From Cyanidioschyzon merolae (taxonomy: Eukaryota): a DNA stretch of 64,000 nt. The translations under genes were made by a program, and so were the position numbers. The stretch lies in assembly GCA_000091205.1 (NCBI GenBank), contig AP006499.2; one strand, written 5' to 3'. Shown here piece after piece: positions 3,878 to 48,993 of the stretch; within the stretch, counting starts at the first letter, position 1; every line of letters begins with the position of its first letter. The notes beneath the pieces are model-generated. The model worked only from the letters and a program-made list of their open reading frames with translations. It did not search any database and was not told the DNA's origin.

Positions 3878-4501
3878 TGCCCTGGCCTGTACTAAGATGC
3901 CGGATCCGCACCCAGACTGGTCAAGTACAACAGCATCAACGACCTAGTGATGACGCGAAGAGATGTCCGACGATAGAGCTGGCTGTGCCTGCTGCCTGGA
4001 CCCGCCAACATGAGGCAATACGCAGTCATCTCGAACAATGAAATACCATCGTGATTCACCAATTGCTCACAAAATGCATTCCCGATGTATCTATACAGCG
4101 CTTTCTTCTTACTGGACTGCTGAACCGTACGAGAGCAGTGCCTTGGTGCAGACGGAGATCCAATGACCACTCTCGTGGCCATTGATTTTTTTCATCGGAA
4201 TTTGTCAGCATGTGAGTACAGTGCCTCGACTGCGTTCTCAGCGATTCCCACGAACATTCGCGTAAAACGAAGCTGCTGGAGGCCCCGGAGAGCATGAATC
4301 ATTTCCGGATATTGATCGAGGCGCTCAAGTATCGGTGCAGAAGGTGCTTCGGCGCATTGTTGATAGCAAAGTCACACCATAGCGAGCCTCGCTTCCTCCA
4401 TTGCCTCTCCGTTTGGCGCTTGATTCGCTCTGCCCGACGCCATCTCGAGCATTCGTCTCTGTTTCACGCCTTGCTTATGCATCTGTTGGATATGCGATCC
4501 G

Positions 4502-13477: not shown

Positions 13478-14024
13478 CGGCGCCTTGAGCAGTCACAACA
13501 AGCTGTCGCACGCCCGACCCCAGCTCCGACAACGCCTCCGTCTGTCTTTGAACGTGTGCGGCGGACCGGCCAGGACTCGCTAGCCCGCAGCACGTTACAG
13601 AGCCGTGTAAAGGCAGAGCACAACACGCAACGCCCTACTCTAGCCTAGAGTATGAAGTGCAGACGAAACACCGCCACCTTTTCAACCTTGCGCCGCTTTC
13701 TTGCAAGGTTTACCTGCATGCAGGGACACGTCAGTGCCGCCAGCGACAAGGATGCGTGCGCGCGTCGTGACGATGCGTGCGCTGTCACGCCTAATCCCGC
13801 GCCGGGGCCGCTGGCCGCCTTCGAGGCCTCCGGCGCAAATCGAATCGCGCTGAGCGGCTGACGCAGCGCAGCGCTGCGCAGCGCAGGGGTGGGCTTGTGC
13901 GGTGCGCGACTGCGCAAATGCGCTCGTGGAGTGGGGGGTTGTGGAGCTGCGGCCCCGCCGCACTTCGCTGCGTTGCGCGTATCGAGCCGACGTCCCCGTG
14001 CCGTCCCCGCCATGCTCTGGTCAG

Positions 14025-15420
14025 GAAAACGAACACTGTTCCACGGCCATGGAAGGTATCTATACACCCACGCACGGATGCCTGCCAGCCGTTTTGTTTC
14101 GACCGGCCGCCTGCGATCAGTTTTGTTTTATCAGGGGACAGTGCGAGCCTGAGAGACAGCCCAAGAAAGTCGGTTCTCATCAACAGCGCCTATCGTCGGA
14201 TATTGATAGTGGCATTGAAGTCCCGATTCACAAAGTCCATTCGTGCGGTTCCGCTGGTGGAACGCACGAGTACCAGGATTGCGAGAACTCTTGTCCTCAG
14301 TGCCGTTTAGTGCTCTGCTCGCTCTTCGTACTTTTTTATCGCCGAAGCGTTCGGCCGGCTTTGCTCCATCTCGACGTTCTCAAATGTTCAATACAGCGCA
14401 ACCTCTGCACTTCCTATTTTTGAAACTGAAAGCACTCTTTCTTATGCCATTGTTTGAAGACCTTGCCGGAGAGAGAGGCACGAGCGCAAGAAAGACGACA
14501 TATGTCCGAGTGTGTCGCCATGTGCTGAACGCTTCACCAATTCGCCCAGTGCAGCGATTATAACGTTTCACGATAGAAACCACGTCTTCGATTGGCATGA
14601 ACCAGGAAGCGTATGGAGGAATGATACGCGGCTCTACCCCTGATAGAATCGGAAACAGCTCGAATGCAAGGGGAATGTTATAACGCCACCTTATCTAGTA
14701 GAAGGACGTCGTCGGACGTCAGGGAGAGGTCTTCAGTGATTCGATAAAGTGATTTGTGCTGCAGTATGAGCCTTCTCTACGAGCGAGACTTAGGCTGGCA
14801 AATGAATCCACTGCAGATAGAACAGATGATGATGTCGTCGTTCCCTTTGAGCTCGATCTTGCATGCAACCGGTGTCCTGCTCCTCGAATACCCATACACG
14901 CTCCGTCTGTCTCGTTTGAAGCAAGTCACATCGACTGGAAAAAAACAAACCGATGTTCCTCTTCTTCATGTCGATCGCTGCGTTCCAGGAAAGCTGTGGC
15001 AGTTTCGATTTCGATGGAAGATGGCCGTGCGTGAACTAGGACTTTTTTGCGACTGTATATTCGTGTTTCCATGATTACACGAACGAGCTCTTGAGAAACA
15101 GAGACGCCCGCAGTAAATAGAATCGACGCTTTTGTTTTCCGTAAGGTGTTCAACGGGTCGTTTCTACACCATTGACCGCAAGAAGTCTTTCAGAGTATCG
15201 GCATTTGATGCGGAGCGCGTGTACTCTTTTCTATGAACATTCCTCAGTCATCAGGGTACTGTGCAACGACTGACCTGAAGGAGGAATGCCATCCTCCATG
15301 CACTGCTCAGTCAAGTATATATATCCTAAAGGCAATTCGTCTACGATCTATGCTGTACATTGCATCGATCTTTCGATCTCTCGCGCTGTACTGCGAAAAA
15401 AGCATTCGATCACATGCGGC
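14025..15420 (-). mobile_element. Degenerate TnpB/Fanzor-like element, copy A (~1.4 kb): decayed coding body plus conserved 3' non-coding tail
   Basis: Minus-strand translation at 14192-14233 gives MDFVNRDFNATINI (RuvC-III motif). The body at 14460-15420 aligns with copies B and C, with shared blocks 'ttcgcccagtgcagcgattataacgtttcacgatagaaa', 'gtgaactaggac', 'ttgagaaacagagacgcc' and 'gtacattgcatcg'. The tail 'gaaaacgaacactgttccacggccatggaaggtatctatacacccacgcacgg' at 14025-14080 is shared with all copies. Multiple frameshifts. Confidence 0.5.
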
Positions 15421-16596: not shown

Positions 16597-19113
16597 AGAC
16601 GTGACCGCACGGTATACCTGCACTTTCAGAACTGGGCATGTGCATGCGTCTTGACGACCCAGGGCGAGAAACTGCAACAACGACGCCAGATACAGCAGGC
16701 AGCAGCGGCTCGAGCGAGTGCGTCTCGCGATACCATTTGCGAAGCGACCGGCATGCTGGAACGACCACAAAGACGCGCGGGACGCAGCGTGATCGTACCT
16801 GTATCTATCGCTAGTGGTTGCAGCACTACGTAGCGAGATCCGATGCACTCATCGAGAACACGTCATCGTGGAGAGAAATGCGCACAGAGACTATCGCTGC
16901 ATCATTTTCGGGTGCAGCATTGCGACGCACCGAGGAAAACCGATCACGCGAGCATACCGTGAAGCGGGATAGATGTTTCCGCGAAGAAAAGTTTTTTCCA
17001 CAGTCTAAAATAGGGCCTTTTTGCATCATTCCTGGACGTTCAAATGGAAACACCAAGCATTGATTGCCCTTGACGTATTCGCCGGGCCAGATGGTTCCTG
17101 TTCCAGCTGCTCTGAGCATGAAGAATGCGGAACGTGCACGCTGCATTCCACGAGTTGCTGCGCCGCAGTAGCACGCGTTTGCGCGGTCCCGATTACAGTC
17201 CGCAAAGGTTCAGGTTTTTGGTTTCAAGCTGGCGACAGTTCGTATGTGCAGGAGGGATTGGGGATCCATCTAGACTGCCAATAGAAAAGCGCGAGTCGAA
17301 AGCAGCGTTCATGTACGGCGCTCAACTCTGCAGATCCGCTTTGCAAGGAAGCGATCGGACGGTTGCACGCGACGTCGCATGCGTTTCGATACACCCGCCT
17401 AACGCGTTACCGGGCAAGAGACACCACGGAAACCCGGCTAATATACACGATGTGTCGATAAAGACACATGCTTCATGCAGCCTGCTGGTCTGCTGGACTG
17501 CAACGCCGCCACCCGTGAAGTGTATTGAACGCGCGGAAGCGTCGAGGCAGCTGCATTGGAGCGGAGATCGAGACCCTGGGAACCGGCTCTGGAAGCGGAA
17601 ATTCCGGTTTACCCGTGTCAGAATAAAAAATAGAACGAGTCGCGTTCGCCAGCCGAGGCATACGTTCTAAAGTCTGGGACTCTTCGCATGAACGCCAGCG
17701 CCAGCCTCCACGGGATTTTTTTGCGTATGTTTTGTTTGCTTGTCTCGGAACTATAACTCTGTTTTCAGCTGCCAGGCGATGTGCACGGCGACGTAAATGT
17801 TCCTATTTCGTCGCTTTCGGGGGTTGTCGACGCATTTCATGCTCAGGTAAAAGTTGTAATCTCCGCTTTGCCAGCCATTTTCCTTCTCTTTAGATACAGG
17901 ATCGGTGTGCCCTGCGCAGCTGTGGCACTTGACTAACGGCACGTGCTCCGATACATTCAATGCATCTTCTCGCGAGAGCGCCGAACTCTGCCGCGTGAAC
18001 GCTTGCTTCTTCGCTCGGCACATGCCCTTGACAAGGACAGAACTTTCACCCTGATGCTGTTCTCCGCTTCTGCGCCCAGGATCGTACCATGCGATCAGGG
18101 GCTCCTTCAGGGAGCTCGCCCCGGAGAGCACGCCGGCTGCTCCTTATGCGAGCGCATGCAGTTCCATTCGAAAGAGAGTTTCTGAAAGGCGAGGCTCTCC
18201 GTGATGAAGCAAGTATTGTAAGGAAAAATCAGGCTGGAGATCGTCTCTAGAAATTCCGATCCGTCTGTGATCCCTCTTTGCGGAAAGCGTTGACGAAGTC
18301 TCCATCGGAAGCGATCGCCTCTGTGGCTCAAGTCCGAATCCAAGACTCTTTTCCATGAAAGAAGACACGGGAACTTCTGGGACCATACCTTGTGAATTGT
18401 ATCATGGTACAGTGGAGTCCCGTTTCACCAGTTACCATGACGAGAGGAGGATTTATCTCTCGAACGCAGTCTGTGATTCAGCGAGACAAGTTCAGTGAAT
18501 GTTCGGCATGAGATTGTGAACAATGCCCCCAAAGAGTGAAGTCGAGCAGTTTCCTCGTCAATCGAGCGGGCGAATGATTATGGTCACGAGATGTCCTGGA
18601 GCATGAAGATCGATAAGATAAGGCAAGCTTGATTTGTGTATTTTACATATAAGGGAAGGAGAAGGATGGATGCTTTTTCATATGCATTGGATAATACTGT
18701 CGGTTGTTTTACCAGTGCTTGTTCGAGCGCGTTACGAATCATCCCGATTCCGGTGACGCAACGAATGCCAGTGGCAGACAATATTGCAGGTGCCACTTCG
18801 AAACGACGACCGAGGATCCGAAAACTACCTATGGATCCGTAAGCGCATTGTGCTGCGCTTCGAACGCCTACCAAGCGCATCAAAAAAATTCGTACGGAAA
18901 TCGAAAACCAGGAAACGATTGCCCAGTTCACTTTACCACTTGAAGCTGACACCAACGTAGATGCATAGATCCAAAACTCTACGTCAACTCGCCGACGCCC
19001 CTAGAGCGATTGTGATCATCATCAGGTCGAGTGGTGCGCGATGTGCGCTCGCTTTTGCTAGAATGGCACCAGATGCATTCGGGGTGTACGGAACGCGAAC
19101 AAGACTGCTTTAT

Positions 19114-21100: not shown

Positions 21101-21185
21101 GGTAGTATAGCTCAGTCGGTTAGAGCGTGCGGCTGTTAAGACAGTAGAAACCGCAAGGTCGAGAGTTCAAGCCTCTCTACTACCG
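21101..21185 (+). tRNA. tRNA-Asn (anticodon GUU) with an 11-nt intron at the canonical 37/38 position
   Basis: Cloverleaf is readable: acceptor GGTAGTA/TACTACC, D arm GCTC-AGTCGGTTA-GAGC, anticodon stem TGCGG/CCGCA with loop CTGTTA|AGACAGTAGAA|A, variable loop AGGTC, T arm GAGAG-TTCAAGC-CTCTC, discriminator G. U33 and A37 are conserved. Mature length 74 nt. Confidence 0.75.
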
Positions 21186-22619: not shown

Positions 22620-23999
22620 TCAAAGAATATTCACATACTCGCGAAGCATCGCGGTCAAACTTGGATGACGCAACTTTCGCAGAGCTCGTGACTCAATCAG
22701 GCGAATCGTGTGAACTGGTAACTTGAACCTTGCACTGAGTTCCTCCGCGGAGTGCGGACGTTCGTCATCCGAAATGCCGTACCTCAAACGAAGAATCTCG
22801 CGTTCCTGGAACGGAAGGGTGCGCAACACGCACTCGACATCTTCACGCATACAGCTCCGCTCCAGAGCCTCCTCGGGTGTCTCCTCTGTGGCCTCTATGA
22901 CGCTGCCAATGGAGAGCGGCGCCTCTCCCTGCTGTGCCTTGTAGAGACTCTGGGCCTCAGTGCTTGGTGGCCCCTCTAGACTAAGGGTCTGCGTTTCCCA
23001 GGCGTGTTGCGTGATCTTCTTCAGACGTTTCAGTGTCATATTGCATGCCTCAGCGACTTCCTCGTCCGTTGGTGGTCTCTTCAAAACGTGTTGCAAGCGG
23101 GCCCTCGTCCGATAAATCTGTCGCAATGATTCAGTCACATGATTGGGTAAGCGGATCGTGCGTGAGTGCTCAGACACACACCGCTGGATTGCCTGCCTGA
23201 TCCACCAAGTCGCGTAGGTTGAGAACTTGAAACCTTTGGAGGGATCGAACTTCTCCGCCGCGCGGATGAGGCCAATGGCTCCCTCCTGAATGAGATCGCC
23301 GAGAAAAATGTTATGCTGCCTCTGAAGTCGCACTCGTTCATGAGCGGGCACCTCTATTCCGCTCTTCGTCTTGGACCGCCAGGCAGAGCGCACTACTGCC
23401 CGAGACTTGTAACGATTGGCTATTGCTAGAACTAAACGCAAGTTTGCTGCGACAAGACGTTCACGCGCCCTCCGTCCACGTTCCACCCGCTGCTGGATTT
23501 CCTCTTCGGGCGCATCAACTGCAGCCGCCCACTCTGCGTTTGTAGGCTCACGCCCCAGGGTGTTCCGGAGCTCGTCACGTTGTTTCAACAGCGCGCAGTA
23601 GTCCTGCGTGGCTCGCGACAAACGCGCAACCTCCTCGTCAGAGATGCGGTCCAACTTACAGATCTCTCGGACATAGGCCGTGGCTGCACAGGTCGTCGTG
23701 TGATTCGTTCGACGTCGAGGCTTCTTCGCCGCGCTCGTCGGCTCCTCTAGCTCGTCAACTTCGACCTTCTCAAGATCTTCTTCTTGAGCAAGCACCTTGT
23801 TCTCGTCCTTGATAACAGGAACATTTGGCACCGAAACCAACGTCGACAACGAGCGCAGCGACTCCGGCAAGGACCCCAGCGGGGTAACCTTCATGTGCGG
23901 GGTCATCACTGCGTGGCCCCGCGCAACCCGCGAAACGGGACAGACCCGCGCAGCAACCTGCCGCTTAAGACTCGAGACGCGTGCCCAACTGAGAAACAT
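22620..23999 (-). CDS. Sigma-70 family RNA polymerase sigma factor with an N-terminal extension (nuclear-encoded, plastid-type)
   Basis: Region 2 ([12 protein letters not shown]...[37 protein letters not shown]), region 3 and region 4 ([11 protein letters not shown]...[24 protein letters not shown]) are present. The first ~150 aa are non-conserved, consistent with a targeting peptide. Confidence 0.85.
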
Positions 24000-24435
24000 A
24001 GAGAGGGATACAAAGCAGTCTCCTCGTGAAACGAGGTGTCAGCTGCGTAACCAGGAAGAAACAGGTCCTGCTTGAGCACAGGTCACCGCAACGAGAGTAC
24101 AAAGAACGTTGGCTGAAACCCGCCGCGTGTAGGGCGTGTGCTCGCCCCCGATCTCAACGACGGCGGGGCAACGCAGTGACCTCAGGGCGCGCGCGCGCAC
24201 GCCCCAGGGCGTGGCTGGAGAGCTCGACCGCGGGTGTGGACCCCCGCCGGGGTGCACGCGCCCGAATCCCAGATCAGGGCGGTTGGTTAAGCGGGTGCAC
24301 GCTCGGCGCAGCGCGTCGGGATGCTGCCGTCTGAGTCTTAAAACTGGAATTTATTGGATATTTTGGTCGTGCGTCGGCTTCAGCAGGCGCCGGCGGCCGC
24401 GGCACACCTCAACCATCCCAGATACGGCATCGTGA

Positions 24436-25450
24436 GCGCGCGTCCGATAAAGGTGGAATCCTGAGATGTTCGCTTTGTTCTTGGCTTGCGATTTACGTTA
24501 CGAACGATTCCCAGAGGTACAGCGCCAGCATTCGGATCGCAGCAATAGGGGATGACGGATTCATACGTAGTTTCAGGATGATCGGTCATCGTTTCGAAAT
24601 GGCTCTTTCGAATCTCTTTCAGAGGGAACACGCAACGATACCACACTGAGGATGATCCTCGATGCCCTCGAACAACGGCTCCTAAAATAACCGATCTCAT
24701 CATCCAATGCATACGTACAAGCCTCCACGCCTCTCTTTTCCTCAGGTGCAGCACGATCGAATCACCCATGCCTCAAGGTATCGATCCGTAGGTTATGAGC
24801 GCAATCGTAGGCGCACCAATTTGGACTGCTGCATTACCATGGGGAAACAGTATTCGACATCGCTTCCCTAGGGCTGGCCTGTGACCTCGTTGCGGACGTT
24901 CGCTGAATTTGGCACGTTCAATAGTCGATTCGATTCGATTCGATTCGAATCGAATGACAAATCCGGCTCCATCTGCGGCTATCGACGAAACGGCAATCGA
25001 CTGCAGCACGGGAGGTGCCACGGGGTATGGGCTGCGGGGCTCCCGTGCCTTGCGTTTGCATGGAAATGATCATTGGGTCGGTCTCGGATCGTCCGTTGCG
25101 TTGGCATCCAGCGGATACTGCGTCACTGCGGTGCACGGAAAGCGGGTGCCTGGGTCGATATGTACGGACCTGATCTCCAGCCTGGATTTTCATCCTGGTA
25201 CGTGTTTCTTCCTGATGAACATCGCGTGCCGCAGACCCTCGTCTCGTCGCGAAACAGCGAAGAACAGAGGCTGAATACGATAGAGAAGAAGAAGACAAGC
25301 GAAGCGTAGATCGCAACGACCGCTTGTGCTTGCAATGGATGCACAGCAGCTGGAAGCCGCGTCATTGCGTCGATAACGCTGCTATCAACAATCCTTCGAC
25401 TGCTCAAGATGGAGTTGGTGCAAAAAGGGAGACCAGCAGATTGAAAGCCG
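24436..25450 (+). repeat. Family-X dispersed repeat, direct-repeat copy 1 (~1 kb, no long ORF)
   Basis: About 97% identical to 27750-28765. Starts at 'cgcgtccgataaaggtggaatcctgag'. Contains a (GATTC)n microsatellite at 24925-24955 and the conserved core 'gaagacaagcgaagcgtagatcgcaacgaccg...ccttcgactgctcaagatggag' at 25290-25430. Confidence 0.9.
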
Positions 25451-25860
25451 GAGATTCGAGCGAGGAAAAGGACGGAGTTCCAGATAAAGCACGCAAATGC
25501 TTGTGTTGATCACTGAAAAAGAAAGCGACTCACACCCTATAGTCTCCATCCGTTTTTAGGGAGTTGATCGGTTCGGTTTTCTGTCTGACATGGGTGCAAA
25601 ACCCCAAATATGTGACCTATGCGTTTTGAAAAGCCGACATACTTCACGGCCTCCTGCGGTGTGCAACTGCAGCTGCAGCACCTGCGGCTCGGTATCGCAA
25701 GCGGCATTCTACTCAGAGGCCGCCATGTAACGCGTCGCGGTGCGTCCAGCCGGTGGGCGGTGTCCTGGCTGAGTCGCAGCGCCGGGCGTAGCTGACGTCG
25801 AGTGCGAGCCTGGTGGTAGCCAGCGACTTCCTCCGTACCAGCACGAGGCACTGACAGGTC

Positions 25861-26853
25861 ATGTTCGTGGCACTCGGACCTGCCAAACTAGGCCTTGACC
25901 GGCGGCTTGGAGCCCCTCGAGTTTCAAACCGGTTGAGGACGTTAAGGCTGTCGTTCGCGGAACGCGTGGAGCGCAGCTTGCGGAGAAAGTTTCCTGCCGA
26001 CTCGGTCGCCCGTGTAATCCAAGCTTGGCGACAAATTCAAAGAGGCGAGATGCTTCGCGAGGATCAGAGGGAGGCACATAGCTATATTCGAGGACTTCGC
26101 ACTGCCAGGTTTTTTGATAACGCCGAGTTTCCCTGGGCGGCTGCTCTCGAGAGGAACTGGGAGACCATCCGCGACGAACTGCGGCACTGGGAAACGCGAC
26201 GCCAGGAGCTCGAGGCGCTTGGCTCGCAAGTTTGGGTTACTGCAGCTCGAGCGGAGGCCGTTGCCTATGGCCCGGACTGGCGCACCCTGGTTCTGCAGGA
26301 TAGACGCTGGCATGACGACAACTGCAAGCTCTTCACCAAAACGACAAGAATTATTCGGGATTGCGGTGTGCCGTCAGTCGAGGCTTTTTTTGCCAGGCAA
26401 GCACCCCAGAGCGGCATCAAGCTTCATTCTGACGGATGCAACTTTATTTTGACAGCGCATTTGGCACTTCAGGCACCGCCACGACAGTCATGGATTGCAG
26501 TTGGCGGCGAGCGCCGTTTCTGGGAAGACGGGAAGGTGCTCATTTTCGATACCAGCTATCTCCATGAAACATATAACGAGAGTCAAGACTCTGATCGGTA
26601 CGTTCTTTTGTTGCGTTTCTGGCATCCTGAAACAACTAGAGTAGAGCGCGAGGCCTTGCAGTACATTTTTGACGTGGTCGACAACCCGTCGTGGGTCGAT
26701 CGAGACCTGAATGATCTGGGAGCAGGTCTCGATTCCTCGCTCGTAGAAGATTGGATACAGCGTCCGAATAGGAAGGCGCGGCGTGGCACCGGCGGCAAAG
26801 ACCGCAAGGACCGCACGTTAAATCCGCCCAGGGGTTTCGGTCGCTCGGAATGA
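25861..26853 (+). CDS. Aspartyl/asparaginyl beta-hydroxylase-family (2OG-Fe(II) oxygenase, cupin) protein
   Basis: The FFDNAEFPW...LERNWETIRDEL block and the ...IKLHSDGCNFILTAHLAL... His/Asp metal-site region resemble the Asp/Asn beta-hydroxylase family. The gene lies between the two family-X direct repeats. Confidence 0.6.
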   Translation: MFVALGPAKLGLDRRLGAPRVSNRLRTLRLSFAERVERSLRRKFPADSVARVIQAWRQIQRGEMLREDQREAHSYIRGLRTARFFDNAEFPWAAALERNWETIRDELRHWETRRQELEALGSQVWVTAARAEAVAYGPDWRTLVLQDRRWHDDNCKLFTKTTRIIRDCGVPSVEAFFARQAPQSGIKLHSDGCNFILTAHLALQAPPRQSWIAVGGERRFWEDGKVLIFDTSYLHETYNESQDSDRYVLLLRFWHPETTRVEREALQYIFDVVDNPSWVDRDLNDLGAGLDSSLVEDWIQRPNRKARRGTGGKDRKDRTLNPPRGFGRSE

Positions 26854-27749
26854 TGATGCCTTGGCTTCTCCGAGGCTGTGCCATTCAAGCGCTTGCGCGT
26901 TCGCGATCGACATTGGGTGCTCTTAGAATTTTCCAAGACATATTGTTTCTGAACTTGGCGTGCACAGAGGGTCAGCCTGGTGATTTCCAAACGTAACGTG
27001 GTTTCGCACGGGGAGTACTGCTCGACGAGCACGTCCCGCGAGGACTAGCGAGACACGCGACGACGCCAAAGGTGTATTACCGCTCCCAGTCTGGATTGCT
27101 TTTCGTGGATAGCCCAGAGCTTTACCCGGGAGCAAAGGACAACAAAAGAGCAGCGTACATGCCTGTATTAGCATCACTCGATCATGTGGCACAGGAGCCG
27201 GTTCAACTGCTAGCAACATGCGTTCACTCAAGGAAACATTCGACTGTAAACGAAAGCAGCAAGCTGTTTTGAGTCTCTTCTCGAATGCGGCAACATGGCG
27301 CTTAGCATTCAGTATTCCCTTTTCCAGGATGTCGAGCTATGGTTTCAGCGTCTGTGCATCTTGTGTTGCATATTAGCTGACATCGATGCGAGTCGTAAGA
27401 GCAAGTTGCAGAACAGCTACAAGCTCTGTTCACGAACAGGTCCATGTGTGGCGCTGGGCAAGCTCATTCGCGGGATTTTGATCAGCACTAGAGCGACAGC
27501 GATCTCAGGGTTGTGCAGTACATCACTTTCGCATGATCGACTTGATTGAATGTCAGCTTCGAGCGGCACGTTTTCAGTAATGGCTTCCAAGGGCATCTTC
27601 TGGAGCCCGGCTTCAGTGCATGATGCGCCACCTTTTCACTCTCGTGTGCAGGGCGTGCTGTGGGAAAATACATTGTACGGAAATCGATTGATTTGCGATG
27701 TAATCATGGCTCCGTGATGGTTCCAGCTGGCACCACCAGCTCATTCCGC

Positions 27750-28765
27750 AATACCCGCGTCCGATAAAGGTGGAATCCTGAGATGTTCGCTTTGCTCTTG
27801 GCTTGCGATTTACGTTACGAACGATTCCCAGAGGTACAGCGCCAGCATTCGGATCGCAGCAATAGGGGATGACGGATTCATACGTAGTTTCAGGATGATC
27901 GGTCATCGTTTCGAAATGGCTCTTTCGAATCTCTTTCAGAGGGAACACGCAACGATACCACACTGAGGATGATCCTCGATGACCTCGAATAACGGCTCCT
28001 AAAATAACCGATCTCATCATCCAATGCATACGTACAAGCCTCCACGCCTCTCTTTTCCTCAGGTGCAGCACGATCGAATCACCCATGCCTCAAGGTATCG
28101 ATCCGTAGGTTATGAGCGCAATCGTAGGCGCACCAATTTGGACTGCTGCATTGCCATGGGGAAACAGTATTCGACATCGCTTCCCTAGGGCTGGCCTGCG
28201 ACCTCGTTGCGGACGTTCGCTGAATTTGGCACGTTCAATAGTCGATTCGATTCGATTCGATTCGAATGACAAATCCGGCTCCATCTGCGGCTATCGACGA
28301 AACGGCAATCGACTGCAGCACGGGAGGTGCCACGGGGTATGCGCTGCGGGGCTCCCGTGCCTTGCGTTTGCATGGAAATGATCATTGGGTCGGTCTCGGA
28401 TCGTCCGTTGCGTTGGCATCCAGCGGATACTGCGTCACTGCGGTGCACGGAAAGCGGGTGCCTGGGTCGATATGTACGGACCTGATCTCCAGCCTGGATT
28501 TTCATCCTGGTACGTGTTTCTTCCTAATGAACATCGCGTGCCGCAGACCCTCGTCTCGTCGCGAAACAGCGAAGTACAGAGGCTGAAGACGATAGAGAAG
28601 AAGAAGACAAGCGAAGCGTAGATCGCAACGACCGCTTGTGCTTGCAATGGATGCACAGCAGCTGGAAGCCGCGTCATTTCGTCGATAACGCTGCTATCAA
28701 CAATCCTTCGACTGCTCAAGATGGAGTTGGAGCGAAAAGAGAGACTTGCGTATCAAGAGCCGGCG
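27750..28765 (+). repeat. Family-X dispersed repeat, direct-repeat copy 2
   Basis: Near-identical to 24436-25450 and carries the same ORF artefacts in the track. Differences are a shorter (GATTC)n at 28234-28257 and a more diverged final ~40 bp. Confidence 0.9.
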
Positions 28766-30109
28766 ATAAGTCGTAGGAGAAAGATGCATTCGCAGGAAAA
28801 CCAGCAAACGCTGGTCTTCATAGCGCTTGGAGTAGACCGAAACTTGTGAATATATGCTCCCGCTCGAAACGCGGACCTGGTTCTTTTTTATTTTGGAGTG
28901 GGTGTAGAACCATGTCAAGATAAGAGTATCTGCGATCAAGTCACGCTGGCGCTCGCTCTTCGATATTCGCAGGCGGAGGCCTTGGCGGCTGCTATCAGAA
29001 TGCCATCCATAACCGGGTCGAGCTCCGTTTTCCCTGTTTCCGAGCATTTCCGCCTATTGTAACACTTTAAAGTCAGTTGATCATCTGAGGCACGAGTTGT
29101 CAAACCATTGGTTCAAAGATCAGCCCCGACCGAAGCGGGCCTGCTCAGCATCTCTGGCAGGCTCATAGCCCTTTGGGCGCTCCGGTAGCCGCTCGAGATG
29201 TAGAGATTCAGCACCAAGTCACCGGGACGTCGTTCAGCGCATATTCTGGTGCCCCGAACAGCGGTTTTTGCCGCGTGATATCGCGGAAACGAGGCAAAAC
29301 TTCCCGAATGCGCAAGCGGGAATCGCAACCTGCTAAAGACCGAAGTTACTCACCAGGTGTGATAACATTCCCCGCAAATCCAATATCAAGTTCTATGCTC
29401 GAATAAAGGCCTCATCGATCCAGCAAGCCACCAGAACCGAGCGCTACTGGTGGTGCACCCTGCGACGTCGGATGCGTCGCCGCCGCGGTACCATTACCGA
29501 GATGGAACCGCGTTGCAGTCCGTAATCGGTCATCGGTTCGAGGTCGTCTAGCCAGCGATTGCATAGTGTCTGTTCACGGTTTAGAGTTACGACGATTCGT
29601 TGACGAGGCGCGCAGCCCATGTTGCCGCTTCTGTGCATGCATCGACCCAGCTCAAGATTGACTCCGGGGACACCCTGCATAGACTCGGAAGGCGAAAATT
29701 CATACCTACGCTTTGGAGACGAATGCACAGTCGGAGACAATTCGAGACAGGCACGCGCACTCTCCGCCGCATGAAAGCTACCAAGCGGCTCGCTTGTGTC
29801 CGAGCCTAACGTCGTGCGAGAAGACGGTGCAGTGTACCTGGCCAACACCACGCCATCATTTCAGCTATGGGTAGCTCGCTTTAAATCTGCATGATTTGGG
29901 CATCGTATACGCCACCAGTCTCGAGCAGTACACACCAGGGATGATAGAGCGCCTCATGATCTGACAGAATGATTAGCAACATCGCGGATGCACGCTGCAG
30001 AAGACCATGCGATCGACAGCTGCGAGGCCGTCCTCGGTACGCATCGATTGTGCACCGACACGCTGCCCAGACGCACGGAATCGCGGTAGCCCAGCAACGT
30101 GCATCTTCA

Positions 30110-30400
30110 AACTATATCTTTCTGAACTTTATGGTTAAAATATCCAACAATATACCCCAAATGCTCGCGGACAGCGTTCGCAGAGGCAATACCCGATGAA
30201 CAGAAATATCACTAAAATATACTTTCCTCCACCTTATGGGAAAGAGTGTACCAACATTCCGACTCGATATGCGCGCGGACAGCGTCCCCCGGAGGCGATT
30301 CCCGATGAACAGGTACATCACAAAAATATACATTCCAGAACTTTATGGAAAAGTATACCCAGAATTGGACTCCAAATGCGCGCGCAATCGATCCAGCGGG
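30110..30400. repeat. Imperfect tandem repeat, ~110-bp unit x ~2.6, 400 bp upstream of the CHD gene
   Basis: Units share 'ctttatgg..aaa...tacc.a.a.t...ctc.a.atgcgcgcggacagcgt.c.c.gaggc.attcccgatgaacag..a.atcac.aaaatata..ttc'. Confidence 0.6.
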
Positions 30401-30801
30401 CCAATGCTGCGTGCTGAGCAAGCAGACGCGTACGCGTCGCCAGAAGCGCCCCGTGCCTGCCCGCGATCCAGCGGCTGCCAGCAGCAGCTCCAGCACCGAA
30501 ACGTAAATCGCGCGCCTCCACACGCGCCAGTAGAGGCAGGTGTAGCCATCGGCGATGAGCCGGCGCGCGCTGTTCAGATGCCGCGCTCCAGCACTAGCCG
30601 GCAGCAAACGCGCTTGCAACGACAACAAGTATGCGAATATGGTCAATGCGCGATCATGGCTGCTGGCCCCCCACGGGGAACAACACGGAGCCGGCGGTTG
30701 CGCGCTAGACGTGACACGGGAACGCAGCGCCTCTGTCGTCGGCGGTGTGTTTGGAATTGGTGTTCGTGAACTTTGGCAAGTTGACGGCTTGAAAGAGAGC
30801 G

Positions 30802-33800
30802 TTGGGCTGCATGGGGCTTCAGCTGGAACACACTGGGAGACGTTTGCGAGGTGACTCAGCACGTCAGTCGAAACGCTCGCGCTCGGAGTCGTCCTCCGGA
30901 ACCGATGCGCTCAGTGAAGCTAGTTCGTGGTTGCGCGATGAGAGCAGCGGGCTCTATCCTGAAGCAGAGGGTGTTCGTCGACAACCGAGGCGCAGTGCGC
31001 GGGCTAGCCGCTCGATGCGTGTTGAGTCTAGCGCTTCGGAGCAGAGTGATGAGGCTCTGTACCTGAGTGATTCGTCGACGAGCTCGCAGTCTTCGACTGG
31101 AGCCGATAGCGAAGCGTGCGTGCCGCGAGCAAAGCGTCGTCGTGAAGCGCGAGGCTCGGAGGCAACCCGCTCCAGCCGAGGGGAGGTTGAAGAGGTTTCC
31201 GATGCACACACTCCGAGAACACCCGGCGATCAGGGTGCTTCGTTGGACTCGTACCCAATGGAGCGCATCCTTGCGCGGCGTGTACGCCATATGACCCTGG
31301 AAGAGGCGGCTGAGATGAACTCGAGTTTGTCACCAGCGTCGAAAGTCTCTGCTGGCGCCGAAGAGCGTTCGCCTGCAGAGGGCTCGGGCGACCGCGGTCG
31401 TCTGCGTACCCCCATGGTAGAGGAGTACCTGATCAAGTTTAGGGGACTCTCCTATATACATTGCCAGTGGGTCCGGGAGGATTTTATTCTGGCGCAGCCC
31501 AGTGGGAAGCAGCGTCTCCAGCGGTTTCTGAGCAAAGAACAACAAGAGGCTGCATACCGAGGTGTCCGAGGTGTCCTGGGATCGGCCTCCGATGCTGAGG
31601 ATCACGATGAGGAGGACGAAGCAATTCCCGAAGACTTCGTCACGGTGGATCGAATCATAGCCGAACACGTGGGCCCCGACGGCACACGGCAGTTCCTCGT
31701 CAAGTGGTGCTCGCTCGGCTACGATGAGTGTACCTGGGAATACGAGCACGAAGTCCAGGACGATCTCAAAATCAAGGAATTTTACGAGCGGAATACGCTG
31801 CCACCGGAAAGCGAGCGAAAACGGCCACCACGGCCAAACCCAGCAAGCTTCGTGAGGCTCTCGAATCCATCCTTTAAAAATGGAGGCGAGCTACGCGAGT
31901 ACCAGCTCGAGGGCCTCAACTGGCTGGTGCATTGCTGGTTCAAACGTCAGGGGTCCATTCTGGCCGATGAAATGGGCCTGGGCAAGACCATTCAAGCTGT
32001 ATCATTCCTAGACTATCTCTACAGGGAACAGCACCTTCGGGGTCCTTTCCTGGTTGTCGCGCCTCTATCCACATTGGGACATTGGAAGCGAGAGTTTGAA
32101 ACCTGGACTCACATGAATGCAATCGTCTTCCACGGCAACGTCAGAGCGCGTGATGTAATTCTGCAGTATGAATGGACCTATGCGGGCATGAGCGTCAGAT
32201 CAGGCCTTTTTAAGTGGCATGTTCTCATTACGACGTATGAGATTATCTTGCAAGAAGCTAATCGCCTGCGGGGAATACCCTGGGCTGTCATCGTCGTGGA
32301 CGAAGCGCACCGACTGAAGAACCGACAGTCCAAGCTGTTCGACGAGCTGCTTGGCTTCCGTTCCGAACATCGGGTACTGCTCACCGGAACGCCGCTCCAG
32401 AACAATTCGCTGGAGCTCTTCTCGCTGCTCCATTTTCTAGAGCCAGCAAAATTCCCGAACGAGAAAGAGTTCCAACAAGCCTACGGAGATATTCGTGACG
32501 CCGAGGCTGTCGAGAACCTGAAAGCGTTACTGCGACCGTATCTCCTGCGCCGGATGAAGGAGGATGTTGAGAAAGCGATACCGCCCAAGGAAGAGACGCT
32601 CATAAGTGTCGAGTTAACTCGAATTCAAAAGCAGTGGTATCGAGCGCTGTACGAGCAGAACTTTGCTTTCCTCGAACAAGGCGGCAAGCGCAATAATGTT
32701 GGTAATCTGCGCAACATTGTGATGGAGCTTCGCAAGTGTTGCAACCATCCGTATCTCATTCGTGGTGTCGAGGAGATCGAAACACAATCACTCGCTGCCT
32801 TAGGTGAAGATGCACTGATGCGACACTTGGTGGAAGCATCTGGGAAGCTGGTGCTTGTCGACAAGTTGCTGCCTGTACTGCGCGAAAAAGGGCATCGCGT
32901 GCTTATCTTCTCGCAAATGATTCGCGTTTTGGATATACTGGAGGACTATCTCCACTGGCGGGGATATAAGTTTGAACGACTGGATGGCCGGGTCCGCGGA
33001 AACGATCGCCAGCAGTCCATTGATCGCTTCCAAAAGGACCCGGAAAATTTCGTGTTCCTGCTCTGCACTCGTGCTGGTGGACAGGGCATCAATCTAACCG
33101 TTGCCGACACTGTGATTATTTTTGATAGTGACTGGAATCCGCAAAATGATGTACAAGCACAGGCGCGCTGTCATCGTATCGGGCAAGAACGCGACGTGAA
33201 AGTATATCGCCTCATTACGCGCGGCACGTACGAGGAAGAGATGTTCGATCGAGCGAGCAAAAAGCTCGGACTCGACCAAGCAGTGCTGCAGAACATGGGT
33301 GTCGACCAGGGCGGCAGCGGCAACATGCTCTCCACCATGGGCCGCGATGATATCAATCGCCTCTTACGACGTGGTGCCTATGATGTATTTAACGAAGACG
33401 ACTCGGCAGCTGACGCATTCACTGCTGAAAATATAGAGAATATCATGGCGCGACGTACCAAGACGATCAAGACTGGTGGCGCAGGCGACGTTGGACCGTC
33501 AGCGTTTTCCAAGGCAACTTTCACGGCGGATGCTGATGGGATGTTTGGCGATGAAACTTGGCTGAATGACAAAGAATTCTGGAAGAAACTGATGCCACTA
33601 GCGGCCTCTGCACCGAACCCCGATATCATCTATGAACCGCGTCGCCGGCGACAAGTTCAGCGCTTCCAGCCGGGCGAAAACTCTGATGAGGAGAGCGGCG
33701 AACACGAGTCCGACAGCGATGAAGCCGACTTGTCCGAGGACAAACTCGGACCCGATGGTCGGAAACTCTGGAACAAGTCCGAGCGACATCGATTTCATCG

Positions 33801-36800
33801 GGCGATGCTCACTTATGGCTACGGAGAGTGGGAACGGATTGCCCAGGCCATGGCCAGGGCCCAAAAAAGTGCCAATCAACGGTCTGTGTTTGAGGTTCAA
33901 CGCGCTGCTCGCAGCTGGTTGCGGCTACTTGCGGAGCACACTGCTGCCGCGCTGGTTGCTGGCGATGCCGCGGATGCCACGCAACAGGAGCGTCTCGCCC
34001 AGGAGCGCCTCGTGAAGCTTTGCAACGAGAAGCGCGTGCTGCAAGCTGCCTTTGAACCCTGGATCGATGAGAACACGCAACAACCTGTCGATGAATCGTT
34101 CACTGAACCAGTCTTCACTGAAGATAGCTACCTCGATGCAATGGAACGGAACGGGTACAACTGGATTGAACGTCTCGAATGCATCGAAGACATCAAAGAT
34201 CTGGTTCGAAACGGTGACGTTGACGGTGAGATTCCCTCGATCACCGCCAGTGGCATCTATGTGATGCCCGACTGGTGGGACGCCGAGTTCGATCGAGCCC
34301 TGATTCTGGGCACCCACAGGCACGGGTACGGCCAGTACGATGATATGAGGCGGGATCCGGATCTGCACTTTTTCGGACGACTGGCGCCTTTGCCGCAGCC
34401 GGAGCCTGGCAATGGGAACGCAGCCGAGGACGGCGACGCGAGGCTCGCCGAATGGACCGCGCTGGACCAAAGCTACCGTGAAAAGGCCGCGTCTTTGGGA
34501 CTCGACGCGGAACAGCTACGAGCACGCGAGATGCCGACCCTACATATACTGAATACGCGACTGAAGAAGCTGCTTAAGGCATTCCAGCGCCTACGACGGC
34601 GACAAGATCGTCGACGGAGCCAACTGGAACAGGCCGAAGAACGTGCGCGTGCTCGTGAGGAGCAACAGTTAGCACGCCGACGACAACGCGAGGCGTTTGA
34701 ACGCGAACGATCGGCTCGCTTTGAGGTTCAGGCACAACGCTGGTCCAAGCGTGAAAAGCACGACTTTGGACGTCTTCTTGGACGTCTCGGCGGCGTGGTC
34801 TATGACGCGGATGGGCGTATTGACTGGTCCGTTTACAAGGAGCGCTGCCAGCTTTCACGCAAGTTCGACTACAACCTCGAGCGCATGTACATTGAGATGT
34901 TGGCCATGGCTCGGGAGAGTTTTCGACGTACCGGTGACGATGCGCTCGCAAAGGCCCTCGATGAACCCATCGAGTATGCGCTGCAGTGGCGGGCCAGTCA
35001 GCATGAGTCGCGCCTCGCGGAGATGCAGCGACTGAGCCGCGAGAGCAGCGACGCTGCCACTCGATTAGCTGCGCTCGAGGAGTGCCTTCGAGCGCCCCAA
35101 CTGGAAGGTTTTCCACCGACTGAACTCGAGGAATTGCGCACCCTGTTTATTCTCTCTCGCCGTTTCGTAGAACGCGTGCGTGTCTTGCACTTTATCCGCG
35201 TCGTCGCTGCACCACTGCTACAAAACCCGGAACTCTGTTCACATCTGATCGAGAACATACCGCCGCCTCGGTCGGACACACTGCCCTCCTGGTGGCGTGT
35301 CGCTGAGGGCCACGACTTGGCGCTCCTGCGCGGCGTCATTCGCTACGGCTTCGACACCGCCCCGCTAGCACTGGACCCGTCGCTCCCGTTTCTGCCGATA
35401 TGCTCGGATTTGGCGCAGCGAGCGAGCACCGCTGAACGTGCCCCCGAAGACGGTGACCTCAGCACCGCAGAAACAGAAACACGATCCACAAACAACGAAA
35501 ACGACATCGTTGCTATGTTTGCCAAACACCGCGGTGTCTTTCTGCGTGCACGCATCGCCGCTGAGGTGCTCGTTTACGGACGTATCGAGCGCGTGCATGC
35601 AAGCGCATCGTCGGGATCCGTGAAGCCCGATGCCCTGCCCCCGCAGGTGCCACCGCTGCCGATGGACACGTCATCGATGATCACGCATGCAGCGGGCACG
35701 CTTGGCAGCTTACGTGTCTATGCGACGGCCTCGGGGGAGCCGATCTCCAGCGAGGGTGGCGATGATTTCGAGCCTGTTCCCCTGGAGCTCGTTACCGTGG
35801 ATATGTTGCAGACATTCAAGCAGTTGAAGAAGCGAGCATCTGGGGTCGTCGATGTATCGAGTTTACCAGAACAAGTAGTGAGCCTTGGTCGCTTGCTCCA
35901 GAGACAAATGATCCGCGAAGAGACCATGTCAGGGAGCACGGGGCTTGAGCACCGATCTTCTGCTCCTGCTGCTGCTGCTGCTGCTGCTGCGTCGCTGGAC
36001 ATGGTGACAGCGTCGGCTGGATCGAGTGGGAAAAACGCCTCGTTGGTGCCGAGCCTCGCCACGGCAACTGCGGAGCGTTGCGGGCATACCGGTGACACGG
36101 AGACGAATCCCGTGCCTGTGGCGACGGGTCAGCGTGCGGTTGTGCCTGCAGCGGCGGCAGCGGGATCGACAGGTCACGGATCGGCGAGTCAGCCGCAGGT
36201 ACGCAGGTCGCAGCTGCACAAAGTCGCTCGCGATGAACACGGGAACGTTCGGTTGCCGATCCAGATCGGGGTGGTCCTACGGATCGAATCCCTCGGGCAC
36301 ATTGATCCACGAGAGAGTTTCCATAACGAGCGAGCGATCTACCCAGTCGGGTATCGATCGGTGCGCACGTACACGAGTTGCGTCGATGTGAATCGCTCAA
36401 CACAGTATGTATCGGAAATTCTGGATCGAGATGGACATCCGTGGTTCCGGGTCACTTGTGCGGACATGCCGGAGGAGCCGTTCGAGGACAAGTCGCCGAG
36501 CGGATGTTGGTCTCAGATCATGCGAATCATTCGAGAGCGAACCCCGTTGGATAGACGACGCGTTCATGCCACGGTTAGCGGTCCAGAGTATTTCGGACTG
36601 ACACAGCCGATCGTCGAAGAGCTTTTGCAGTCCCTTCCAGGGGCCGCACAACTCAAGAACTACAATTTTAAGCGGTTTCTTTCTCCGGAAAAGGCGGAAT
36701 CTGAGGAATCGCTCCATCCCCTGGGCGCAGCGACGGATTCACCGGCAGCGGGTACAGCGCAAGAGCAGTTGCGAGCGGTTGAGCGCGCGAAGACCATGGC

Positions 36801-36855
36801 AGATCCGGTTCGTATCAGACTCTGCCTAGAGCCGATGGAAACAAACCCCGACTGA
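30802..36855 (+). CDS. CHD-type chromatin remodeler: tandem chromodomains, SNF2 ATPase, helicase-C, SANT-like region, C-terminal FYRN/FYRC
   Basis: Chromodomains: [16 protein letters not shown] and [19 protein letters not shown]. SNF2_N: [16 protein letters not shown]...[11 protein letters not shown]...[10 protein letters not shown]. Helicase-C: [30 protein letters not shown]...[21 protein letters not shown]. SANT-like: [24 protein letters not shown]. C-terminal FYRN-like [12 protein letters not shown] and FYRC-like [13 protein letters not shown]...SPSGCWSQI. Single 2017-aa ORF containing a (GCT)n poly-Ala tract. Confidence 0.9.
   Translation: [2017 protein letters not shown]
35959..35990 (+). 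repeat. (GCT)n trinucleotide repeat encoding poly-Ala inside the CHD gene
   Basis: gctgctgctgctgctgctgctgc is translated [12 protein letters not shown] in the CHD ORF. Confidence 0.9.
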
Positions 36856-38197: not shown

Positions 38198-38545
38198 TCA
38201 GTTCGAAGATGGTGTACGGCACGGCGTGCCGGTGAACGATATAGCCGAGAATTTCCGGGCCTGGCTTCGCTCCCAGAAGCAGGGTGCGAATGCGAAACGT
38301 GGAAGTGTTTCCAGGAGATACTGCGAGATGCTGGCGCTTATGGAGAGATAGAAACAGGGGCTTTCCGGGTCAAAGGGAGCAATCGTTCCGTTTTTGTGCA
38401 TATGGACATGAAGTACGTGCAGGAATACTATTTTCGGAGAGGCTTTTATGACCTGAATAGCAAGGTTTTAAGGGTGGCTGGTCGCTTTTCTTCTGGAAAC
38501 CGCTGCCATGATTCATGGAGACCAAGGGATACCCGACGCTTGAGT

Positions 38546-39927
38546 CGACACCCATGAAGAACGACAATGTCATGGGTGCGCTCCGCGAGCTCGTACGCAC
38601 ACGCTCAAGTTCTGGTCTCTTGCGAATGCGATCAAGTCTCTGGGGTTTATCTCAGCGACTGCTTCCTGTTCCTGCCGCGTACTTCCGGCTTCACAGGCAC
38701 CGTTCTCTTCTGTCGCTCCAGATTCGGTGTCAGCAGTCGAAGGGTGTTGACGGCAGTGTGCGAGTCCCAACTGTTTCTCGGCCTCGGGCTGGTGTCAACG
38801 AATGCAATGCGCACTCGCGGTCGCTGCGATCTACGCATCACTTGCCATGTTCGTCTTCTTATTGTGCAGCCTCAGTGCACGTCCTTCGCAGCAGTAACGC
38901 TTGACTCTGGGCAGGTGTTTCCGTACCGTCCATCGCACCGTTTTCTCCGAGTCCTGCCTTCTGGGTCACCAGCGCTAGTCGCATCGCTCGCTACAAGCGC
39001 TGGACGGGTCCAGGCGGTTACCTCTGATACCAACCTGCATTGGCGCGCCCGCCGCTGCACCCTACGCTCATGAGCTTCACCTAGAGTGACCAGCTCGGCG
39101 AATTCGCTTGCTTCTGCGTACGAAAGCGAATGCATACGCTGTTGCGTTCGGTCAAGGACTGTGGAGCGCGATGTTGTCCATGATGAAACAAGCACCGCAA
39201 GGAATACCCTGCGGGCGAAACGAGTCTACGAATTCTGATCCGTCCACGCGCCTTTCGTGCAACGCGTCGACACCAGCTCGACTGGAAGCGCTCGCTACGA
39301 TGACTCGAGTCCGAGTCCGGGTCCGAGTCCGAGACCCCTCAACAGGTAAACGGAAGCGTCGGGCACCCCCGGGGTCGTATCCCGTGAGCGATACCGTGCT
39401 GCTGTGGAGTCTCGTTGCGTCGATAGCCACGGAGGAAGGATGATTTGTCTTCCAAGCGGAACTCAATATTGGACATGACATCGTCTGCGGGCCGTCGGCA
39501 GGAGCTTGTGATCAAGCCGTCATGGCGTATCGTAGAGTGTTTTGCATCGTTCCTCTGGCGTTGCGGACTGCTGCGCCCACGAGTTGCCATGAAGCAGCTG
39601 AATCGTGAGCTTGAAGCACGCGTGACTGGAGCGTGCGTCTCGTCATGCGAGGTGAAGAGCCGAGGCATGCTCGTTTGAACCGGATAAAGAAATCTGTTAT
39701 TTTGCATACGCTAATTCGAGGAGGTCGCGACTCATCTTGATTCTGGTGTCGCAGCGAATGCAACCGGTTGAGCGTCGACGGAGCCGCACCGGAACGTTCA
39801 CCGAGAATCCTGAAACTACTGGTGAATCTGGAAACCCCTATTGGGTGAATCTGAGTGTCGAGGTTGCAAATCTGGAAAACGGTTGGAAAAAATCGAAAGG
39901 CAGGAGCAGTCGACTAGTGCAGTATTC
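38546..39927 (-). repeat. Family-X repeat, inverted-repeat arm L (~1.38 kb)
   Basis: Reverse complement of 43613-45002. Identical 168-aa and 77-aa ORF artefacts appear on opposite strands in the track (38567..39073+ = 44475..44981-; 39445..39678+ = 43857..44090-). Contains a (GAGTCC)n hexamer repeat at 39306-39333. Confidence 0.9.
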
Positions 39928-43310: not shown

Positions 43311-43612
43311 GAACCGTTCATCACTCGGGTAAGTGTAGTGACTGCCCCCAGGCGGTGCTCAACGTGCCCGACTCGACTCGCACACTAGACAAGTTTTGCA
43401 CCCGCGGCGCGCTGCAGACAGCGGGCTTGTGTACTCGGCACACTGCGGATACCCGAGTGGAAAAGGAAGATGCTCGACAGAACACTCCTATCAGAGAGCG
43501 ATTGGGTTGTAGGATTGCTTTGTCGGTGTAGCGGTCGACGAGGAAGATAATGCAAATAGGTACGGATATGCCACTGCGCGATGCTACACTAGTGTCAGAT
43601 CAACATGGAATA

Positions 43613-45002: not shown

Positions 45003-45159
45003 ACAATCGTTGTTTCGATAATCATGTACAAATTGTATACTTAGCCCGATAATATCCCATTTATGTCCATCACCATCTCGATGACGCACTGTCGTCTCTA
45101 CCGGAATCCAATCCGTGTTGACACGACGTTTGTGAACACCCCCGGTTCCTTCCTGAAGC

Positions 45160-48770: not shown

Positions 48771-48993
48771 TTCAGTGCCCCGCTTACTGAACGCGGCATC
48801 GAGCGTGGAACGAATCCTAGTTGAAGGACTTTGAGGAAACCTCAATGCTCGTGTGCCCGCGGGCCGCCGAGCGACACGACCGGGATGCGCGCACGCGCCT
48901 GCGCCACCGGGGCATCGTGCAACGTCCCCCGGAGGCCTGACGGGGTGAAAGCGCCTCACTGGCGAATCGGAGCGCTGTAGTGCGGCTTAGGCT

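Follow-up and report, generated by a model that had tools for sequence, protein, structure and literature searches.

Decayed DDE_3 transposon copies around an aspartyl beta-hydroxylase-like gene of Cyanidioschyzon merolae and their probable homogenization by gene conversion

In the present study, we analyzed a 64,000-nt stretch of the nuclear genome of the red alga Cyanidioschyzon merolae (contig AP006499.2 of assembly GCA_000091205.1; hereafter, the window), with a focus on two direct repeats, C and D, that bracket a gene encoding a 2-oxoglutarate oxygenase similar to aspartyl beta-hydroxylase (AspH). C and D belong to a diverged family of dead transposase-derived elements (F1), and AspH occupies the same position in the sister genus Cyanidiococcus. 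We consider it likely that two dead DDE_3 copies lie around a resident AspH gene and have been homogenized by short-range gene conversion. Composite-element, segmental-insertion, and horizontal-origin interpretations, which had been raised by a sequence-only reading of the same DNA, are not supported. The phenomenon is an ordinary one and does not represent a new kind of system; gene conversion between neighboring repeats, GC-biased conversion, and repeat-mediated inversion are well-known processes.

The direct repeats and the F1 family

In a BLASTN comparison of the window with itself, 24439-25510 matched 27756-28821 with 95.6% identity over 1072 nt (E=0), which is far above chance. The alignment comprises a near-perfect core followed by a degenerate tail. 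In the core (24439-25418 vs. 27756-28731), the two copies differed by 10 substitutions and one 5-nt microsatellite unit and were ~99% identical. The sequence-only reading had described direct repeats of ~97% identity; the direct repeats were confirmed, whereas that figure results from adding degenerate edges to a narrower core. The other features it had listed were all found. The repeats are 3.3 kb apart from start to start (3312-3317 nt, with a gap of 2.1 kb between C and D). They share a (TCGAT/GATTC)n microsatellite that differs by one unit (5.8 vs. 4.8 copies), and they carry the same artefactual open reading frames (ORFs) on the minus strand (24380-24769 and 27613-28086; 129 and 157 aa). 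These ORFs had no Pfam match, are antisense to a transposase pseudogene, and differ in their C-termini between the copies.

A sensitive self-comparison and a profile hidden Markov model revealed at least seven collinear F1 copies in the 64 kb (A to G) of 1.2-1.4 kb with 58-61% identity. The copies were ~60% identical to one another and ~75% identical to their consensus. The family profile matched C at 24437-25259 and 25261-25612 and D at 27753-28571 and 28573-28918, and the termini were set from the terminal inverted repeat of the consensus. Both C and D are deleted for ~245 nt (profile positions 806-1051). The window had also been described as holding only two ~1-kb repeat pairs, each around a single gene. 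This is correct for pairs of high identity, the second being the inverted pair E and F; however, both pairs belong to one diverged family with seven members.

The transposase ancestry of F1 became visible only after a majority consensus was built from five independent lineages; the raw copies gave no protein match in Pfam. The consensus restored a 257-aa ORF on the family plus strand, which matched DDE_3 (PF13358) with 32.9 bits against a cut-off of 28.6 (E=7e-8). This ORF was 50% identical to the pseudogene in C over 207 aa, with stops and a change of frame (tblastn). A match of the consensus to HTH_Tnp_4 was weak (E=0.14), and its N-terminus aligned by eye with the helix-turn-helix (HTH) region of P0231 and P0234, two intact transposases that carry HTH_28, HTH_33, and HTH_Tnp_Tc3_2 matches. 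P0231 and P0234 also aligned to raw C at 24975-25259 (E 1e-7 to 3e-8) and to raw D at 28287-28571 (E ~2e-8) in tblastn searches. An exhaustive HMMER search with a metagenomic F1 fragment (P0174) as the seed yielded ~140 mostly fragmentary relatives and a few intact, distant HTH + DDE_3 transposases of ~260-320 aa. DDE_3 was detected with 66-102 bits in 6 of the 10 relatives scanned, mostly among the longest matches. At the ends of the consensus, the 5' end (CACTCGTGTCAGATCAAAATGGAA) and the reverse complement of the 3' end (CACCCATGTAGAAAGAAAATGGAA) matched at 17 of 24 positions, a score reached by 11 of 2000 shuffles; this terminal inverted repeat was not detectable in single decayed copies.

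Because the consensus contains a DDE_3 ORF, intact transposases align to the raw copies, and the ends form an inverted repeat, F1 is, as judged from these alignments, a decayed IS630/Tc1-mariner-type DNA transposon, with every copy in the window a pseudogene. It resembles that group in its length (~1.4 kb), its short terminal inverted repeats, and the arrangement of a possible HTH-like N-terminus followed by DDE_3, and the consensus shows the first Asp context (IDETGF), a GYAPRGSR motif, and the second Asp context (MDNIAFxKS). It differs in that all window copies are pseudogenes, C and D lack ~245 nt, and no recognizable motif of the third catalytic region was present in any F1 copy of the window. 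Long ORFs were also absent from all of these copies. In the C and D pseudogenes, the second Asp context is altered to FLMNIA beside in-frame stops and frameshifts. Conservation within the family showed no codon (period-3) periodicity, which, together with the stops and frameshifts, indicates that the copies decayed as pseudogenes.

Other assignments of the repeats were considered and rejected. A protein encoded by the present-day repeat was rejected because the minus-strand ORFs lacked Pfam matches, a six-frame scan of copy E gave no protein match, and there was no period-3 signal. Rfam had no match in the elements (E<=1 over 23500-30500; gathering threshold over the whole window). Long terminal repeat (LTR), Helitron, and other termini were inspected by eye and dropped once the terminal inverted repeat and the DDE_3 signal appeared. 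An LTR retrotransposon or its non-autonomous forms (large retrotransposon derivatives, LARD; terminal-repeat retrotransposons in miniature, TRIM) did not fit since the right ends differ, the repeats are DDE_3 pseudogenes, and what lies between them is a host gene in syntenic position.

Probable gene conversion between C and D

C and D were 98% identical as far as 25418; from 25419 onward, identity dropped to 54% until the element ended, which is the value of any two family members. In a profile derived solely from B, E, and G, the right end of C matched positions 165-337 (E=1.5e-7) and the right end of D matched positions 164-341 (E=7e-10), in register in both cases. On the left, the edge of identity lies ~5 nt inside the inverted-repeat terminus. 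Because both right ends are related at the family level only but are in register, C and D appear to be complete, independently old elements with a homogenized internal tract of 980 bp. We infer that the near-identity represents a gene-conversion tract rather than a segmental duplication or a fresh transposition. A segmental duplication was rejected because family-level homology runs past the right boundary in both copies and the left boundary falls within the element.

The age and base composition of the elements point in the same direction. C and E were 73-75% identical to the consensus and the singletons 76-77%; C and E are not young copies because they are as distant from the consensus as the singletons. 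In the paired lineages C and E, weak-to-strong (W>S) substitutions numbered 128 vs. 88 in the opposite direction (S>W), whereas the singletons A and B showed 97 vs. 135 (Fisher p=2e-4; p=0.0016 with G included), in a small sample of two pairs vs. three singletons (core alignment columns of A, B, C, E, and G). The core of the pairs had a GC content of 54%, which is 4-7 points above that of the singletons (47.5-50.7%). The putatively unconverted right ends of C and D had 47-48% GC, and unique flanking DNA was uniformly 55-57% GC. These GC-biased substitutions suggest repeated, long-term conversion rather than one recent event. Repeated biased conversion would not need to start recombination at 60% identity because, under this model, the core never diverged.

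Distances between neighboring copies were 2.1 kb for C-D and 3.6 kb for E-F, both of which are homogenized, vs. 5.5 kb for B-C and 9.6 kb for D-E, which are not. Conversion may, therefore, depend on distance. Each pair would then bracket one gene because only elements one short gene apart are near enough to stay in exchange.

We propose the following course of events. An IS630/Tc1-mariner-type transposon (~1.4 kb, ~24-nt terminal inverted repeats) would have spread long ago through the intergenic regions, and all of its copies would have since decayed. C would have inserted between the sigma-70 and AspH genes, and D, with the same orientation, 2.1 kb away between AspH and the CHD gene. Conversion within the chromosome may have kept or made 980 bp ~99% identical, including the common 245-nt deletion, while the element ends outside the tract (~5 nt at the left and ~180 nt at the right) drifted to family-level divergence. 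The C/D pair would be a substrate for homologous recombination and not a mobile composite element, and AspH would simply happen to sit between two occupied intergenic regions.

Sequences from natural populations were available from metagenomes. Two 53-kb contigs (L011 and L012) were collinear with 12620-33994 of the window at 99.4% identity, with both repeats and AspH present. The repeat copies were identical within each contig and different between the contigs. At 24895, both copies of the 10D strain have G and all seven metagenomic copies have A. These variants agree with conversion and are weaker evidence for it.

Several points weigh against gene conversion as the explanation. Homologous recombination between ~60%-identical sequences is normally inefficient, and the contact between C and D since the time when they were still similar is deduced from the GC-bias signal alone. 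That signal contrasts two pairs with three singletons, of which G is intermediate. Conversion itself was deduced from the alignments and was not directly seen, and its distance dependence comes from a single 64-kb window (n=2). The identity of C and D within each contig could stem from short-read assemblers collapsing the repeat. Furthermore, target-site duplications were not established for F1; TA was noted by eye at 3 of ~11 assessable flanks (left of B, left of F, and right of D) of the strongly decayed copies. An intact F1 member was not found in this lineage, and a word-indexed search with the consensus returned two decayed metagenome ORFs only.

Two other histories of the pair have to be considered, both of which we regard as unlikely. 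In the first, one deleted, non-autonomous F1 copy was recently duplicated locally or made a short hop, and C and D are young paralogues. The ~99% identity, the common 245-nt deletion, and the common microsatellite are as expected from such an event, and DNA transposons generally favor nearby targets. However, a copy would bring both ends with it, whereas the right ~180 nt and the left ~5 nt differ at the family level and in register. C and D are also as far from the consensus as the singletons, no intact F1 transposase was found, and a 36-mer specific to C and D occurred in only two known contexts in the metagenome collection, with no third context of this type.

In the second history, a break in one old copy was repaired once from its neighbor, which left a single tract without long exchange. 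The tract is contiguous and sharp-edged, and the ~1% divergence between C and D is of a similar order to the 0.6% between strains. However, this event requires invasion between ~60%-identical sequences. It also does not predict a W>S excess or raised GC content in both independent pairs, and it does not explain substitutions that are common to both copies within a strain and different between strains, for which the caveat on assembly applies.

The AspH locus and its structural alleles

We also considered whether both pairs are active recombination cassettes in populations. Crossover between C and D would give AspH deletion alleles or circles, E and F would flip the NSUN5 gene between them, and conversion would keep the substrates competent for recombination over the time in which the other family members decayed to 60% identity. 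Since the C/D pair is direct, a crossover would delete AspH or free a circle, as the sequence-only reading had noted; this is physically possible, and the putative conversion tract suggests that C and D interact by homologous recombination. However, a solo-repeat allele without AspH was not seen, although only L011 and L012 span the locus and the power to detect one is low. Both contigs keep both copies and AspH, and the other contigs retrieved that carry the sigma-70 gene stop at or before the repeat. Since assemblies are interrupted at the repeats and the AspH locus is spanned by no more than two contigs, we keep the cassette interpretation in view, but regard it as quite unlikely. If true, it would mean variation in AspH gene dosage or presence. 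One further contig (L017) matched the window from the sigma-70 gene to 24081 and continued with 461 nt (L017:1-461) unrelated to the window or to the other loci. L017 is a probable chimera, or otherwise a structural variant 82 nt upstream of the sigma-70 start codon.

The product of the AspH gene matched Asp_Arg_Hydrox (PF05118, E=3e-37), in agreement with the earlier description of an AspH-family gene flanked by the repeats. Its best named homologue was that of Cyanidiococcus yangmingshanensis (72%), followed by those of Porphyridium, Gracilariopsis, Chondrus, and Pyropia, and then other algae. The gene order chorismate mutase-adenylosuccinate lyase-sigma-70-AspH-CHD-NSUN5-Pfs2-PreP-HSP90-proteasome alpha was the same in the window and in two Cyanidiococcus-type assemblies. 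The sigma-70-AspH spacing is ~0.58 kb in Cyanidiococcus vs. ~1.86 kb in the window, and the AspH-CHD spacing is 1.5-1.9 kb vs. ~3.9 kb. Copies of F1, or of a second repeat family of the window (F2), were not detected by nhmmer and tblastn in ~33 kb of syntenic Cyanidiococcus DNA (L002, L003, and L029). The only repeat at the Cyanidiococcus AspH locus is a 47-nt tandem pair downstream of AspH in L003, and none brackets the gene. The window has ~55% GC and contains intron-free long ORFs, the nuclear sigma-70 gene adjoins genes for chromatin proteins, and there was no compositional anomaly across the bracketed region. Four proteins of the window exactly match C. merolae 10D entries (BAM82107, BAM82108, BAM82110, and BAM82111) from a chromosome of 1,232,258 bp. 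Judging from the synteny, AspH has been inherited vertically and is a resident gene; the elements bracket it, but it does not belong to them.

These findings bear on the idea that the repeats and AspH moved together as a composite mobile unit, or that AspH arrived by segmental insertion or horizontal transfer, which we consider very unlikely. It is true that a single gene sits between two directly oriented copies of transposon origin, as in bacterial composite transposons (Tn5, Tn9, and Tn10), in which two DDE transposon copies bracket one non-transposon gene. However, AspH has the same place and order in Cyanidiococcus, without flanking elements. An insertion of AspH is not supported because synteny places the gene where it was ancestrally and its closest homologues come from other red algae. 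Similarly, a C-AspH-D unit would be unable to move because both elements are dead pseudogenes, lacking the third catalytic region, with non-identical ends that are unrelated beyond the family level. The unremarkable composition and the two contexts of the C/D-specific 36-mer also argue against it. The present locus departs from the bacterial transposons in that it belongs to a eukaryotic nuclear genome and has dead elements, unlike ends, a cargo at its ancestral position, and no sign of movement. The present results remove a candidate mobile or horizontally acquired gene cassette, and AspH in C. merolae appears to be a normal resident gene.

Least probable of all is that the identity has been kept by selection on a function of the repeat. 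Such a function could be that of a small protein (the 129- and 157-aa ORFs), of a non-coding RNA, or of an element with a boundary or regulatory role. In favor of it, a single gene lies within each of the two high-identity pairs, the 157-aa ORF is annotated on metagenome contigs by automated gene callers, and the AspH start codon follows ~265 nt after the right end of C. However, the ORFs differ in their C-termini, lack Pfam matches, and are antisense to a transposase pseudogene, there is neither an Rfam match nor codon periodicity, the other five family members are not conserved, and the bracketing of one gene follows from short spacing.

The inverted pair around NSUN5 and other repeats of the window

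The only other high-identity repeat of the window is the inverted pair E and F (38544-39933 vs. 45004-43602, 98.4% by BLASTN). Over 43608-45004, the copies differed by 8 substitutions and 2 indels (12 nt of a hexamer repeat and 1 nt). The switch of identity lies ~20 nt inside the left terminus, and identity was ~99.4% from there to the right terminus. The NSUN5 gene between them is on the minus strand in the window, whereas its Cyanidiococcus counterpart, which has the same neighbors (CHD and Pfs2), is on the plus strand; CHD and Pfs2 keep their orientation, and Pfs2 of the window is an exact match to BAM82111. Because the gene between E and F is inverted relative to the sister genus, the present arrangement is probably the outcome of a crossover between the inverted E and F, which inverted a single gene after the split from Cyanidiococcus. 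A 15-kb metagenome contig (L032) crosses E with the arrangement of the window (10D). All metagenome contigs with NSUN5 end at the inverted repeats, and orientation is not readable from them. A (CTCGGN)n hexamer microsatellite at 44200-44231 and at a site near ~39300 in E differs by two units between E and F. Each pair has its own private microsatellite, and the length difference of (CTCGGN)n in E/F parallels that of (TCGAT)n in C/D. The coordinates of the features are summarized in Table 1.

Table 1. Positions of the F1 elements, their parts, and the neighboring genes in the window
Feature	Position	Strand	Remarks
F1-A	1-1164	-	Singleton; cut by the window start
F1-B	17591-18957	-	Singleton
Plastid sigma-70 factor gene	22620-23999	-	BAM82107.1, exact match; left syntenic anchor
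F1-C	24435-25596	+	Sigma-70-AspH intergenic region; relic of a ~1.4-kb IS630/Tc1-mariner-type (DDE_3) element, with ~245 nt deleted internally
Near-identical tract of C	24439-25418		Begins ~5 nt inside the left terminus and stops ~180 nt short of the right terminus
Transposase pseudogene in C	24521-25241	+	Putative HTH region followed by DDE_3 as far as the second catalytic Asp region; frameshift and in-frame stops
(TCGAT)n microsatellite in C pseudogene	24925-24953		5.8 units
Right end of C, putatively unconverted	25419-25596	+	F1-homologous; 54% identity to the right end of D; GC 47%
AspH-like 2-oxoglutarate oxygenase gene	25861-26853	+	Product matches BAM82108.1 of C. merolae 10D exactly ('similar to aspartyl beta-hydroxylase')
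F1-D	27751-28904	+	AspH-CHD intergenic region; decayed F1 copy, internal deletion as in C
Near-identical tract of D	27756-28731		Partner of 24439-25418
Transposase pseudogene in D	27838-28553	+	Located by tblastn with the family-consensus ORF
(TCGAT)n microsatellite in D pseudogene	28242-28265		4.8 units; unit loss private to copy D of 10D
Right end of D, putatively unconverted	28732-28904	+	F1-homologous; matches the profile from B, E, and G only
CHD-type chromatin remodeller gene	30802-36855	+	Right syntenic anchor
F1-E	38535-39947	-	Inverted pair with F
Segment between E and F	39948-43585		Holds NSUN5/NOL1; inverted relative to Cyanidiococcus
NSUN5/NOL1 gene	41964-43310	-	NOL1-like BAM82110, exact match to C. 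merolae 10D
F1-F	43586-45004	+	Inverted partner of E
F1-G	58094-59489	+	Singleton

The two pairs resemble known cases of concerted evolution through ectopic, GC-biased gene conversion (yeast Ty/delta elements, the palindrome arms of sex chromosomes, and tandem gene duplicates) in the switch of identity, the diverged edges, the W>S excess, and the putative crossover in an inverted pair. They differ in that exchange would take place between dead DNA-transposon relics of ~1.2-1.4 kb, separated by 2-3.6 kb, in a tiny algal genome, with a history deduced from one window.

Diverged repeats, mostly transposase relics, made up 16.4 kb of the 64 kb (~25%) and were absent from the syntenic intergenic regions of Cyanidiococcus. 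They fall into three families, F1, F2, and F3, all of which are diverged; F2 and F3 fill other intergenic regions. Copies of F2 are located at 14019-15380, 47324-48825, 56461-57870, and 4481-5015, with 68-70% identity between copies. On its minus strand, F2 has a DDE_3 relic (consensus, 43 bits), and ~450 nt downstream of this relic, a motif 'FVNRD[HF]NAA[VI]NIRRCAVLKT' is present at 47538-47561 and 56662-56685. This motif resembles the RuvC-III end of TnpB/Fanzor proteins ('NRDxNAAxNI'); unlike F2, F1 showed no TnpB-like motif. F3 has two copies (4023-4486 plus 5105-5880 vs. 41368-40123) with 60-64% identity. The first copy is split by ~600 nt that are related to the left portion of F2, and F3 (including 40123-41368) had no Pfam match in any frame.

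Transposons have been reported to account for 0.7% of the C. merolae genome, including eight class II elements that are related to transposases, with those of bacteria as the closest, and a 253-copy 'WSV486-like' interspersed repeat has also been described (Nozaki et al. 2007, PMC1955436). CMe-1A is a ~3-kb Fanzor1 element with ~150 diverged copies that are ~80% identical to the consensus, and TE-N2_CMe has also been named (Bao and Jurka 2013, PMC3627910). Ensembl-type annotation assigns ~28% of the genome to repeats, mostly through a consensus-free detector (PMC11050394). F2 may be CMe-1A Fanzor1 or the 'WSV486-like' element. Like F1, the previously described repeats of this genome have strongly diverged copies, and their transposases have been described as nearest to bacterial ones. 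As compared by description only, F1 differs in density, with seven copies in 64 kb being far denser than 253 copies per 16.5 Mb.

C. merolae is usually regarded as nearly transposon-free (0.7%, besides an interspersed repeat of 5%); however, a quarter of this 64-kb window appears to consist of deeply decayed relics of DDE transposons, which escape standard similarity searches. Relics at distances of 2-4 kb seem to exchange sequence in a GC-biased manner and to have inverted at least one single gene since the split from Cyanidiococcus. The present results may assist repeat annotation, the interpretation of synteny breaks in Cyanidiales, and the design of gene targeting in this alga, which depends on homologous recombination.

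A few minor features were also noted. A weak DDE_3 relic outside the three repeat families lies on the minus strand at 7198-7485 (tblastn with the intact transposases, E 1e-6 to 5e-6). A tRNA gene on the plus strand at 21101-21185 scored 60.9 bits with the Rfam tRNA model, and ARAGORN called it 'tRNA-Stop, anticodon tta'. By eye, it looks like tRNA-Asn (GTT) with an ~11-nt intron after the anticodon loop, and the suppressor call looks like a parsing artefact. A tandem repeat with a 109-nt unit (2.1 copies, ~77% identity) is located at 30109-30384, upstream of the CHD gene.

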